A stretch of 64,000 nucleotides of DNA from Eledone cirrhosa (taxonomy: Eukaryota), in contig OZ024740.1 in the NCBI GenBank assembly GCA_964016885.1, positions 373,240,001 through 373,304,000 of the forward strand, written 5' to 3'. The notes beneath the pieces are model-generated. The model saw only the letters and a program-made list of their open reading frames with translations. It made no database searches and had not been told where the DNA came from. Below, one piece after another: positions 11,662-62,564 of this stretch; position 1 is the first letter of the stretch, and every line of letters starts with the position of its first letter. The translations under genes were made by a program, and so were the position numbers.

Positions 11662-11843
11662 TATAAAGACAAAGAGATGAAATCGAAAATGTAACTGGAG
11701 TCTTATTTTAAAAAAAAATATATATATTTAAAAAAAAAATAAGACTCCAGTTGCATTTTCGATTTCATCTCTTTTTCTTTATACTTTCACTCGTGTAGGA
11801 GACCTCGGTTATTTTTCAATTTGTAAAAAAAACCTCACTTTCT
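11662..11843. mobile_element. Mini inverted-repeat insertion of a PLE pseudo-LTR 3' end in (TA)n
   Basis: Arms 11662-11715 and 11730-11782, then a 60-nt tail; same family as 59150-59360. Confidence 0.75.
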
Positions 11844-12244
11844 AATATATATATATATATATATATATATTAATAATAATAAATTGACCGGACTAGCACA
11901 AGTGTTTCTGCTTGTACCGGTTGCATTCAAGCTTACTTAAAAGTTAAGGTTATGTAATAATCTCAGTGTAGCACAAAGTTATTTGTTTCAATAAAACACA
12001 GGTAAATTGTTACCATGATTCTATACCCGTACTCCAGTTGTTTCACCCATATATAATGCAGCAATAGAGAGCACAGCCTCCACTGTCTGCATTTATTATG
12101 GAACAATACCCAATCGGCGCATGTGGCTTCATCAGCCGGTCCCACCTAATCAATAACCTATCGCTCGACAAAATTCGATTCTAGTCCGTGCCGGCTTCCT
12201 CACCAACACCATTATCATTTCCATGGTTGTCTTCATCATTATCC

Positions 12245-12731
12245 AGCATCACTACCACCAACACCACCACTACCAACTCCATCAACACTACCACCGATAC
12301 CACCAAAACTACCACCACAACCAACACCTCTACCACCAACACCACCACCACTACCACCAACACCACCACCACCACTACCACCAACACCACCATCACTACC
12401 ACCACAACCAACACCTCTACCACCAACACCACCATCACTACCACTAACACCACCACCACTACCACCAACACCACCATCACTACCACCACAACCAACACCT
12501 CTACCACCAACACCACCATCACTACCACCAACACCACCACCACTACCACCAACACCACCATCACTACCACCACAACCAACACCTATACCACCAACACCAC
12601 CAGCACTACCACCAACACCACCAGCACTACCACCAACACCACCACCACTACCACCACAACCAACACCTCTACCACCAACACAACCATCACTACCACCAAC
12701 ACCACCACCACTAAAACCAACACCACCATCA
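12245..12731. repeat. (ACC/ACT)n-based low-complexity array with about 60-bp higher-order units
   Basis: Direct reading; yields poly-T/H/V artefact ORFs. Confidence 0.9.
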
Positions 12732-13169
12732 TACGACAGGTGACACGGTATATATATATATATATATATATATATATATATATATATATACTATATGGTT
12801 TTATATTCTTTGTCACATTTCACAATCGGTCATAACTTGACTGTGTTAAACCTGTGGCTCACTACGGATATTTAATATACATATAACACGACACTACATA
12901 ACACTTTCTAGAGCTTTTTCTTCCATGTATATTCAATTTCCTTCAAAATCATTTAGCACCATCGTTCTTCGTATATCTATATCAGCTTATTATATCTACT
13001 TTTAACTGGGAATCACGAGTTGAGAGATTCCTTTAAAATAATTACTTTCCTTGACTTCATATGAATTACACATTTTCAGCTTGAATATTTCACAATGAAT
13101 TAAAACCATTTATTCACATACTGTTGCACTAACCAGGACAACTGTCCCTTAAACCTTATTTTCACTTAC

Positions 13170-13257
13170 CTGAAGTTTAGCTCCAGTTGTTTGTGTTCAA
13201 TAAGTAGGTGAATATCAATATAGAAATATGCTTGTGGTGATTTTTCATTTGAAAGCC
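13170..13257 (-). other. Candidate isolated 88-nt internal exon
   Basis: Minus strand tttattcgtgtAG acceptor, CAG/GTAAGT donor, one open frame LSNEKSPQAYFYIDIHLLIEHKQLELNF; no homology recognised. Confidence 0.2.
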
Positions 13258-14094
13258 CTACACGAATAAATAATTCACTGCTTCGTCAGCCTTCTTTAGC
13301 ATTTTGAGTTTCCTATGAAGCATCATTCAATCGCTAGAATAGTGCCTTAATAATTATTGCCATCTGTGAATTGAATCCATTAACCTTCTATGTATGCACA
13401 CATATTTTTTCTATGCTCGCATTGTTTTTGTTTTCTTTTACTAGAATTTGTTCTTCAGTGACCCAGCTGTTTAGACATTCCTGCATTATTTACGGGATAG
13501 TTGTAATTAGTCAAATGTAATTAGTATAATACATATTCTCCAATTAACAAAATCTATCCAATAATTTCCTTTATCTGGTATCTTTTCCATCACAAATCAA
13601 TAACCAATACAATTAGCACGATATATAACAAACCTCACTGGAACACATCTAAATTTATCTAGAAAGGTTCGAAAACACTTGAGAGTTCCATTATTTTACA
13701 AGCGAGAATTATCATTTTTTAAATTATTATTTTGCATACTATGTATGTATAATATAGCACATGTGCATTTAAAACTAATACATTCCCTGAAATGGTATCA
13801 AGTATTCTCTTAAAGTCAATTACATATAAGACTATTGGTGAATGCAATTTATTTCATACCTATATAAACAACCTTCAAGTAATCAACCTGATGTAAATCC
13901 TACGTTTCGTGAAGCTTGCTCACAGAACAACTTTATTGTGAAAGAGAAGAAATTATCTGTATATATGTGTGTATATCTCAATTTATGGTACAATTGTTTC
14001 ATAAAACATACAGTTTGACAAACGTGTCCGAACACGGAAGAACCGAACTCTCACTGCCATCGCCTACATCTCTCTTGCCCTACCCATCTCTCTA

Positions 14095-59103: not shown

Positions 59104-59149
59104 TGTATATATATTTATATATATATATATGTATATATATATATATATA

Positions 59150-59360
59150 TTAGAAAGTGAGGTTTTTTTTTTACAAAATGAAAAATAACCGAGGTGTCCT
59201 ACACGAGTGAAAGTATAAAGAAAAAGAGATGAAATCGAAAATGCAACTAGAGTCTTATTTTAAAAAAAAATATATATATTTATTTGGTTCCTTTACCGTT
59301 TTCGCAGTTCTTCTGCTTTTCAAAAGGTGAGTTGAGATGGAGGTTCTGTGGTTTTTCTCA
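59150..59360 (-). mobile_element. PLE pLTR fragment (family of 11662-11843) with HHR at 59290-59327
   Basis: CCUU-UUGAAAA-GCAG aagaa CUGC-GAAA ACGG UA-AAGG. Confidence 0.8.
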
Positions 59361-59436
59361 CACACACATATATATATATATATATATATATATATATATA
59401 TATATATATATATATATATATATATATATATATATA

Positions 59437-62400
59437 TGGTAAACGGAATAGAAAATGCTGACAAATTGTTCACAGTTGAAAAATGGTTTAATTAGGAATA
59501 AAAGAGTATTAGTGATTGTATGGGTTAGTATTCAGGTGTGGTATTAAGTTTTTAAGTTTTTACCGGTTGCGCATTTCTAAATGCTTTTCAAAAATAATTT
59601 TGAGATAGAGTGTCCGTGCTGTTTGCTCTGATCAGATTAGTTTTGGGAATTCTACCTGTTTTTATGTTAAAAAAGTGGCTCCAGCGTTATTTTTGTGTTG
59701 CAAAAATGCTTGTGGTCAAAACAAGTTTGATTGGTCGGTAGAGGTCTTGTGAATGTAAAAAGTTGATTTTGCGCCAAGACTGTTTTTATGTTAAAATGTT
59801 AAAAAAGTGGCTCCAGCAAAAATTATTGGTCAAAACAATTTTGATTGGTCGGTAGAGGTCATGTGGATAAAAAATTGGTTTTGCGCCAAGATTGAGAAAT
59901 GACTCTTTCACAACAAATATGTGTGTGTGTGTGTGTGTGTGTGTGTGTGTGTGTGTGTGTGTGTGTGTGTGTGTGTGTATGTGTGTGTGTGTGTGTAGTA
60001 GTAGTAGTAAGGTGTTCGATGCTGCGACAATGGCCAGCAGCGATGTGTGTCAAATGGCTATTACGATAAGTGTGTGTGTGTGTGTGTGTGTGTGTGTGTG
60101 TGTGTGTGTGTGTGTGTGTGTGTGTGTGTGTGTGTGTATGTATATATATATAGTAGAGTCATTCGAAGGTCAAAAGATATTTTTCAACTTTTGTCTTATA
60201 CGGAGAAGTGCGTTTGTGTGTGTGTGTGTGTATAAGTCTCTTTGTATGTTGATGTACGCGTGTGTATGTGTTTGTGTATATATGTGTGTGTGCGTGTGTG
60301 GGTGGACCAGTATTTTTTTCCCCCTGGTAAAATGGTGTACATTATTCGATTTTTTCAGTAAAATCGGTTCTCTTAATAGAACATCAAAAATCTTAACAAT
60401 AAAAGGTGTGAAATGATATTCACTATATATATATACACACATACACACATTCACTACATATATATATATATATACATATATGGTGGCTGCCAACTCGTTT
60501 TCGAGTACGGCCACTACTTTATATCCATGTAGGAAAACCCCTACCGATGCGCGGAACGAGTGTGACTTTTTAGTCCAGCCAGTGACTTGAAAACTCTGGT
60601 ACAAACACTACACTTGTGACAATTAATGACACTTAGTGCTGGGCCTTTGGTATCATGTGACGACAAGTGCAGGGAGATCTCCAGATATAAAGCAATGCCT
60701 GTGCCGTGAAGCTTTTATAGTGAGCAAAGGCACTGCACAAATCCAGTCCCACTCTCTTAACCAAGATGATATTTACCAAAAAGAAGAACAAGTCAACATC
60801 ATTGGATACCATCAGAGTTGCAGGTGTTATATCAGAGTTTTCCTTCTCCTAGAATTCTGCCTTGACAAAGGCTATGGGGTCATCTCTCCCATATACATAT
60901 ATACATACATATATATGCACATATATTTTTTTGTATTGCACCATAGATCATGTGTGTTTACGTGTGTCATTGTGTTTATATGTGGGTAGAGATGTGTGCT
61001 GATGTAGGTATGTATGATGACGTGTGTATGTTGTGGGTTCGTCTTAGGGAGAAGTGTTTAGACGAGGTCCGTATTTGTTAATGAAGTAAGATTCCTTGCT
61101 GATGCGCTGGGTGTGGGTGGCATTATCTTTAAATTTGTAGAGAGGAAAGATTCTGAAGTTGGGATGATTTTGGCGGGAATAGAGGAAAATACCACTGAGT
61201 GAACACATTGATACCTGTGCCGCCCAAAATCATCCCAACTTCAGAATCTTTCCCCTCTACAAATTTAAAGATAATGCCACCCACACCCAGCGCATCAGCA
61301 AGGAATCTTACTTCATTAACAAATACGGACCCCGTCTAAACACTTCTCCCTAAGACGAACCCACAACATACACACGTCAACATACATACCTACATCAGCA
61401 CACATCTCTACCCACATATAAACACAATGACACACGTAAACACACATGCTCTATGGTGCAATACAAAAAGATATATGTGCATATATATGTTTGTATATAT
61501 ATATATATGTAGTGAATGTGTGTATGTGTGTATATATATATAGTGAATATCATTTCACACCTTTTATTGTTAAGATTTTTGATGTTCTATTAAGAGAACC
61601 GATTTTACTGAAAAAATCGAATACTGTACACCATTTTACCAGGGGGAAAAAAATGCTGGTCCACCCACACACACACACACATACACACACACATATATAC
61701 ACAAACACATACACACGCGTACATCAACATACAAAGAGACTTATACACACACACACACACACACACACGCACTTCTCCGTATAAGACAAAAGCTGAAAAA
61801 TATCTTTTGACCTTCGAATGACTCTGCTATATATACACACACACACACACACACATACACACACACTTATCTTAATAGCCATTTGACACACATCGCTGCT
61901 GGCCATTGTCGCAGCATCGAACACCTTACTACTACTACTACTAAACACACACACACACATATATACACACACACACACACACACACACACACACACACAC
62001 ACACACACACACACACACACACACACATACACACACACACATATTTGTTGTGAAAGAGTCATTTCTCAATCTTGGCGCAAAACCAATTTTTTATCCACAT
62101 GACATCTACCGACCAATCAAAATTGTTTTGACCAATAATTTTTGCTGGAGCCACTTTTTTAACATTTTAACATAAAAACGGTCTTGGCGCAAAATCAACT
62201 TTTTACATTCACATGACCTCTACCGACCAATCAAAATTGTTTTGACCACAAGCATTTTTGCAACACAAAAATAACGCTGGAGCCACTTTTTTAACATAAA
62301 AACAGGTAGAATTCCCAAAACTAATCAGATCAGAGCAAACAGCACGGACACTCTATCTCAAAATTATTTTTGAAAAGCATTCAGAAATGCGCAACCGGTG

Positions 62401-62564
62401 AAAACTTAAAAACTTAAAACCACAACTGAATACTAACCCATACAATCACTAATACTCTTTTATTCCTAATTAAACCATTTTTCAACTGTGAACAATTTGT
62501 CAGCATTTTCTATTCCGTTTCCCAATATATAATAACTTGTGTGTTACACCTCTATTCTTTTAAC
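59437..62564. mobile_element. PLE family F inverted-repeat insertion, about 1.3-kb arms, junction near 61178
   Basis: Right arm begins with GIY-YIG C-terminus RKIPLSEHIDTCAAQNHPNFRIFPLYKF...RISKESYFINKYGPRLN*; the tail is on the right arm only. Confidence 0.92.
60481..60890. mobile_element. Unclassified about 410-bp secondary insertion in the left arm of 59437-62564
   Basis: Absent from the mirrored position (about 61490-61510); sits in an internal (TA)n tract. Confidence 0.7.

Follow-up and report, generated by a model that had tools for sequence, protein, structure and literature searches.

Fifteen insertions in a 64,000-nucleotide (nt) stretch of the Eledone cirrhosa genome (assembly GCA_964016885.1, contig OZ024740.1, positions 373,240,001 to 373,304,000; hereafter the window) consist of two inverted copies of the same element 3' end, of which only one carries an extra tail. 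The inserts are 5'-truncated, broken copies of Penelope-like elements (PLEs), and the layout itself is already known. New here is the pairing tally, which turns a loose "often only at one end" into a near-fixed rule: two-armed inserts pair one tailed and one tail-less end in 96–98% of cases. On balance, we favor a mechanism in which one protein–RNA complex cuts both target strands and the two DNA ends prime separate complementary DNAs (cDNAs) from distinct fixed sites, which probably lie on one RNA.

The tally was made at two scales. Families were defined from the words adjoining (TA)n, and 24 natural reference sequences were set for them (labels F and G below); the end bearing the tail is called the outer site and the end without it the inner site. 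Eight 200-kb stretches of the assembly were picked irrespective of content (1.6 Mb), and the 1.66 Mb compared contain 140 head-to-head pairs from many families. After exclusion of 32 pairs with several arms or an inner (TA)8, the 108 clean pairs comprise 100 one-tail, 8 tail/tail and 0 none/none cases. On inspection, three of the eight exceptions are in fact one-tail, three come from F7, whose sites are ill defined, and two are true. Families with poorly defined sites (F5, F7, G82 and G59) were left out of some tests, and block B5, which is without a (TA)6 run, contributed no pairs. Genome-wide pattern counts on the 3.0-Gb assembly that holds the window, requiring exact anchors and covering one size class per family, give 10,057 one-tail, 77 none/none and 107 tail/tail short hairpins for F1 (10,057/10,241, 98.2%) and 676, 13 and 12, respectively, for F2 (676/701, 96.4%). 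Independent choice of ends would give an expected one-tail share of 50%. Some of the apparently symmetric matches are not truly symmetric, owing to TA expansion in the tail, short tails or neighboring inserts, and 98% is therefore a floor for the F1 size class. A first-pass annotation of the window had named random tail/no-tail pairing across the genome as the outcome that would speak against its proposal, and these counts contradict such randomness decisively.

Self-comparison and end-to-end alignment reveal, at all 15 loci, two element 3' ends pointing outward and an extra tail of 32–104 nt on a single side, which bears out the shared inverted, one-tailed architecture that the annotation had read from the sequence. 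Identity between arms ranges from 72 to 100%. The window has 35.9% GC and about 90 (TA)n runs, and at most loci the arms run into (TA)n as claimed; the exceptions are the tailed ends at 25091 and 45075, which meet (TC)n and (CA)n. The tail was said to lie on the long arm in some inserts and on the short arm in others. Arm-length parsing agrees for 25091 and 50118 (long) and for 36727 and 38979 (short), and the open reading frame (ORF) remnants, which give the orientation of the long arms, agree for 45075 (long) and 53642 (short). At 59437 the arms are nearly equal in length and one holds a later insertion. Arm starts are sharply two-peaked in most of the 24 family references, so the two-ended pattern is not due to chance. 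Of the 15 rows listed for independent short-read contigs, 14 contain head-to-head joints linking 53684-53707 with 55731-55738, and raw reads of a further run stop at 53705 (360/634) and 55733 (7,034/8,998) and have (TA)n behind the inner site, at 55786. Because these data show the same joints and stop points, the inserts are not misassemblies or chimeric reads, the other outcome that had been named as fatal. The head-to-head one-tailed structure is real at all 15 loci, which are listed here by locus with the features inside them:

11666..11844 (locus 11662): F3 hairpin from the alignment, no-tail arm left, 65-nt tail right.
24283..24458 (locus 24281): F1 mini hairpin from the alignment, arms of 48/50 nt, 79-nt tail right.
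25093..27922, + strand (locus 25091): F4 Hydra-type PLE, no-tail arm of 221 nt left, long tailed arm on the + strand.
25202-26342, + strand: broken F4 endonuclease (EN) region with CxCX5C linker, in the long arm of locus 25091; the 96-nt tail runs into (TC)n.
34501..34649 (locus 34500): F1, no-tail arm of 52 nt, 16-nt filler, then the tail alone (~80 nt), so that the arms do not overlap.
36439..36714 (locus 36439): F5, 37-nt no-tail arm, 65-nt tail right; the inner site of F5 is tentative.
36474-36585: F5 inner hairpin, within 36439..36714.
36725..37436 (locus 36727): F6, no-tail arm long and on the left, tailed arm short and on the right with a 101-nt tail, predicted hammerhead (core CUGAUGA).
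37506..38953 (locus 37503): F7, three arms and not two (tailed, inverted tailed, no-tail), tail ~104 nt; the F7 site definition is tentative.
38979..40011 (locus 38979): F8, no-tail arm of 705 nt, tailed arm of 235 nt plus 92-nt tail, predicted minimal hammerhead.
40113..40542 (locus 40111): F2 perfect hairpin of 197/197 nt, joint at a native 10-nt palindrome, 40-nt tail right.
45075..49186, + strand (locus 45075): F9, inverted no-tail arm at 45075-46052, 43-nt tail into (CA)n.
45936-48582, + strand: F9 broken, near-full-length PLE ORF, reverse transcriptase (RT) with YVDD and C-terminal EN.
50119..52260 (locus 50118): F2, long tailed arm left (39-nt tail), no-tail arm right.
53644..55863, - strand (locus 53642): F1 Hydra-type PLE, long no-tail arm on the - strand, short arm of 57 nt plus 80-nt tail.
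55070-55729, - strand: F1 EN region from ORF translation, CxCX5C, single Cys in the GIY-YIG core.
53656..53749, - strand: predicted F1 hammerhead, U3-A8 core variant, long loop II, stem III of 6 base pairs (bp).
57508..58803 (locus 57506): F10, retrozyme-like tandem 311-nt unit, 2.8 units (tailed, 32-nt tail) against ~1.5 units (no tail), single haplotype.
58917..59104 (locus 58918): old F1-related hairpin, arms 72% alike, 85-nt tail right.
59438..62564 (locus 59437): F2, no-tail arm left, interrupted at ~60482-60890 by a later insertion; the right arm carries a 41-nt tail.

Several families can be placed from their translated remnants. The EN regions at 53642 (F1) and 25091 (F4) are 38% identical to each other, and both have a CxCX5C linker (CNCPDRSIC and CNCRNPESC) and one Cys in the GIY-YIG core. 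F1 and F4 thus appear to carry the Hydra-clade signature, a CxCX5C linker with the CCHH motif lost in the EN. The linker and the lack of paired Cys in the GIY-YIG core agree with the clade as described in the available text of PMC8557442, as do the predicted hammerhead ribozyme and the insertion into (TA)n; the assignment is based on the EN region, since the copies are truncated and lack the RT region, where the clade's RWK and DKT motifs would lie. Unlike the Hydra clade, F9 has an EN of CxxC type and probably belongs to another PLE clade. At 45075 an RT (YVDD; RVT_1 E 0.004, below cut-off) and a C-terminal EN-like region lie in a single broken ORF, and the GIY-YIG match at 25091 has E 0.01, below the Pfam cut-off. 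The arrangement that defines EN-containing (EN+) PLEs, RT plus C-terminal GIY-YIG EN in one ORF, thus appears to be present, with weak Pfam scores and in ORFs that are all broken; the inverted 5'-truncated copy and one-sided tail of EN+ PLEs are also found in the inserts, and any target-site duplication would be masked by (TA)n. The short families have no ORF in view. F10 is a 311-nt tandem unit in up to 8+11 copies, with a putative hammerhead spotted by eye only and missed by the descriptor; it appears to fall among the tandem non-coding units of 150-450 nt with a type I hammerhead that define retrozymes. It resembles the animal non-LTR (long terminal repeat) retrozymes of PMC7229834 and bioRxiv 10.64898/2026.07.22.740005, in the text available of each, in its ~311-nt tandem hammerhead unit, low GC and PLE kinship; opposed multimeric arms with one tail, as in F10, find no mention in those parts of the two sources. 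Three further remnants lie in the window: a Hydra-like RT/EN remnant of another PLE ORF at 19631-21384 (-), a PLE ORF remnant with a different EN type and CxxC core at 63346-63999 (-), and a decayed long interspersed element (LINE) at 41999-45051 (+), which is not a PLE and has AP endonuclease and RT by Pfam and short tandem repeats at the end adjoining (TA)n.

Two separately primed cDNAs very probably gave rise to these inserts, as judged from arms and junctions. In 318 F1 inserts (169+149) whose no-tail arm extends as far as it normally does, the tailed arm breaks off within the tail; the arms have no sequence in common, and plain copying of one arm therefore cannot have produced the other. 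In 31 of 100 sampled pairs the longer arm is the one without a tail and in 14 it is the tailed one, the remainder being near-equal or unresolved. This pass called too many arms equal, and a later re-parse was used for F1. In 56 F1 hairpins the arms stop mostly 52–62 nt from the inner site, and the no-tail arm is longer in 26, shorter in 22 and equal in 8. Their junctions are blunt in 16 cases, have microhomology in 11 (1 nt in 9 of them) and are filled in 29; half of the blunt junctions (8/16) leave a loop of ≤2 nt. These junction classes and tiny loops fit a joining of two free 3' ends, and hairpin self-priming fits them poorly. Two single-armed inserts (L017, L029) and a block insert show an inverted copy of the adjoining flank at the second (TA)n end, which was therefore extendable. 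The non-overlapping arms and the junction types support the annotation's proposal of a break whose two ends each prime a cDNA, at two fixed sites, before the cDNAs are joined. Its statement that simple snap-back copying does not explain the inserts likewise holds, given the 318 inserts, the junctions and the fact that either arm can be the longer one.

The flank copies in L017 and L029 (near 1450-1500) and in block B1 at 285,600 (C1 ~373,325,600) measure 9–13 nt or longer and look as if the target end had folded back, been extended and then been joined. The F1 stop zone, at 53695-53705 and 55725-55735 in the window, lies inside hammerhead loop II, and other families have stop zones of their own, at ~197 nt in F2, 50–55 in G38, 56–73 in G8, ~162 in G32 and 170–180 in F8. 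Transcript start, a protected fragment and structure are candidate causes; a splice acceptor was rejected for F1, where stops spread over 52–62 nt without a foreign exon.

Given two primed cDNAs, we consider it likely, from the variants that the arms share, that a single RNA served as template. The annotation had instead suggested two separate templates, which is probably wrong: genome-wide typing of F1 subfamilies gives 3,978 a/a and 3,341 b/b inserts (the same subfamily in 7,319/7,348) and 22+7 = 29 mixed ones (0.4%), and in all three F10 multimeric inserts (3/3) an insertion-private haplotype is present in every unit of both arms. Across 57 pairs, 341 marker and 59 unique sites are common to both arms, with 75 and 148 discordant, respectively. 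Gene conversion is unlikely to lie behind the arm identity, as the old family G8 has 0 shared-unique against 21 discordant-unique variants, hence no homogenization. Symmetric inserts are mixed in 3/184 cases, a higher rate than 29/7,348 (Fisher p 0.02-0.04) on a small number. In 11/17 families, against 1.4 expected, an RCTCY motif lies ≤25 nt downstream of the inner site, and it is likewise found directly beyond the outer site in G86 and in two G8 contexts that run on; this comparison was not blind, because the motif was picked after the tails had been seen. A direct repeat just before both start sites is found in at most 1 of 22 references at p<0.05. One RNA is favored mainly because it explains the strict one-tail asymmetry, and it would need strand displacement or an RNA used in turn by the two primers.

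Several observations weigh against this reading. The stall at the inner site that one RNA predicts was not found in F1, where four windows of equal size across the site contain 169, 149, 145 and 299 ends of tailed arms; a small sample in which 7/100 tailed arms end at 0 to +5 had suggested such a stall, which was rejected genome-wide. Arm lengths within F1 hairpins are weakly coupled (Spearman 0.18, p 0.17), and they agree within 2 nt in 28 cases against 18.6 permuted (p 0.0045), partly an effect of junction parsing. Subfamily a is older than b, with inter-arm differences per 33 nt of 1.83 (n=29) against 0 (n=4), and low a/b mixing is therefore partly expected anyway. There are mixed inserts with up to three linked markers (L209, L215) and 2-3 head-to-head joins between families. 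The commonest F2 junction lies within the native 10-nt palindrome, where snap-back works equally well. Finally, the in vitro study of a Poseidon PLE discussed below reports, in its available part, no difference in start sites between strands, with no per-molecule pairing test (PMC11167929).

Of the cross-family joins, F2 tailed is joined to an F1-like no-tail arm in block B1 at 412,514-412,776 (C1 ~373,452,500) and F8 to G46 at 197,163-197,445 (C1 ~373,237,200). They are either true two-template events or deletions between neighbors; with 1 case under a strict filter, a tally of such chimeras was too small to separate the two and was dropped as a discriminator.

In the mechanism that we favor, a single protein–RNA complex would make cuts in the two (TA)n strands, and the DNA ends so released would each prime a cDNA, one end using the outer start site and its partner the inner one. 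The tail would then correspond to the RNA stretch that separates the start sites, in line with in vitro measurements on Poseidon PAc. A protein dimer may seat its two active sites on separate cis signals of a single RNA, which would force one end of each type. Both cDNAs would frequently end within a zone typical of the family (52-62 nt in F1). Template jump or host end joining would then link their 3' ends, bluntly, through 1-4 nt of microhomology or across a short filler. If either end failed to prime on the RNA, a single arm would remain, sometimes beside an inverted flank copy. It is an even call whether the reaction is an obligate two-primer one on a single RNA, with a protein dimer at two staggered cis signals and the ~98% one-tail pairing as its genomic footprint.

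The strongest alternative, which seems unlikely, is twin priming on two distinct RNAs within one complex, perhaps joined by a hammerhead dimer. The absent inner-site stall and the weak length coupling are what independent templates would give, and the 29 mixed inserts and the few cross-family joins also speak for it. A symmetric RNA pair gives no reason, however, for the 98% one-tail pairing; mixing is as low as 0.4% and F10 arms share private haplotypes, and mixed inserts can stem from later gene conversion or deletion between neighbors, some being mosaics (L204).

The part played by the ribozyme can be assessed separately. A hammerhead descriptor matches in eight families (F1, F3, F4, F6, F8, G32, G46 and G59), where the predicted ribozymes lie 17–132 nt from the inner site. 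It has no match in F2, F5, F9, F10, G21, G38, G82, G86 or G114, several of which show cores by eye, and an Rfam scan of the window at gathering score returns 0 matches. The predicted F1 hammerhead would cut 17 nt from the inner start site; its three-way fold equals the minimum-free-energy structure, yet the z-score is only -0.42. Cores at 53656-53749 (-) and in F3 have a U3-A8 pair replacing C3-G8 (UUGAGAA, UUGAAAA), and visual inspection suggests a U-U mismatch at the stem II base in G8 and G38. The short or palindromic stem III hammerheads mentioned by the annotation do occur, in F3, F4, F6, F8, G32 and G46, and are of the type proposed as dimers in the available text of PMC4209133, which describes the dimer for tandem copies and already notes opposed motif pairs 100-700 bp apart. 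Tailed arms do not pile up at the predicted F1 cut: 56 end there and 44 at a control position, and many of the 56 show GG microhomology; ribozyme-cut RNA as template was rejected for lack of an excess. The annotation's hammerhead-dimerized RNA pair is thus unsupported and, taken by itself, very improbable: F1, with its 6-bp stem III, and F2, in which a ribozyme was not found, both obey the one-tail rule, and Naiads without ribozymes keep the layout (PMC8557442) and ribozyme mutants still insert (PMC11167929), as far as the available parts of these papers report. We infer that the hammerhead plays no part in the priming step.

Improbable, to a greater degree than two RNAs, is a single cDNA that folds back and copies itself, after which the endonuclease trims the tail from one arm at an AT-rich inner site; it combines the self-priming of PMC3846280 with the "EN-mediated resolution" of PMC8557442, as set out in the accessible portions of both. 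It would explain matching haplotypes and one-sided tails together, near-equal arms are common, and the dominant F2 junction is the native palindrome. Against this, microhomology of ≥2 nt is present at only 2/56 F1 junctions, and 8/16 blunt ones are too tight for a hairpin loop; extra steps would have to be assumed for the multimeric arms (8 and 11 units) and for the hundreds of arms that end within the tail, and in vitro the tail ends are RT start sites and not DNA cuts, according to the available text of PMC11167929. A hairpin inherited from a master copy moving as a unit would suit the listed F2 hairpins, most of which are equal in length (411 nt between anchors), but junctions vary from insert to insert in F1, which largely refutes it there, and the F2 junction recurs in a different subfamily; together with an assembly artefact, contradicted by the independent short-read run, it has hardly any probability left.

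As regards the genomic surroundings, insert chains nested in each other's (TA)n occur at 23977-24458, 36439-37436 and 59151-62564 and include single-armed F2, G8 and F3 copies absent from the earlier list of 15. The insertion at 60482-60890 is a separate repeat family placed in a TA run inside the 59437 element, and it recurs in other blocks. The same rare F1 junction appears nine times at ~60-kb spacing at C12:16.98-17.44 Mb, pointing to a large tandem segmental repeat. Block B5 (C5:60.0-60.2 Mb) has 48% GC and zero (TA)6 runs in 200 kb, unlike all other blocks.

In twin priming of the LINE L1, both target strands prime on the RNA and a 5' inversion results; the second site is variable and the pieces lie without overlap. 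In the present inserts the two sites are fixed, overlap between the arms is the usual case, and there is no inner-site pile-up such as a first cDNA stopping at the second primer, with abutting pieces, would leave. Among PLEs, the accessible text of Craig et al. 2021 (PMC8557442) describes an inverted 5' copy, a tail that can sit at either end and is often confined to one, a (TA)n bias, and ribozyme-less Naiads with the same layout, and that of Arkhipova et al. 2013 (PMC3846280) an optional tail on one inverted repeat, with self-priming proposed. The tails there are 30-40 nt, against 32-171 nt here, and those parts of the two papers are without a pairing statistic and explain the form by self-priming or EN resolution. 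For Poseidon PAc in vitro, the part of Frangieh et al. 2024 (PMC11167929) available reports two internal RT start sites that bound the tail, cutting and extension of both target strands, an AT-rich target, a predicted dimer and dispensable ribozyme cleavage. The inserts share with it the AT-rich target and, as proposed here, the two start sites as tail ends; Poseidon is another PLE clade, and inverted arms or the pairing of sites on one target are not addressed in that part. No twin-priming proposal for PLEs and no pairing count were found in the literature searched, a coverage without most subscription papers, including older Penelope reviews.

The one-tail rule bears on the mechanism of inverted, one-tailed PLE insertion, stated as open in the available text of PMC8557442 and PMC11167929. 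For the existing in vitro system, it predicts that start sites on the two strands of one target would be anti-correlated and come from one RNA. If the proposed mechanism is true, inverted repeats, tails and opposed retrozyme arrays would share one mechanism, distinct from LINE target-primed reverse transcription.

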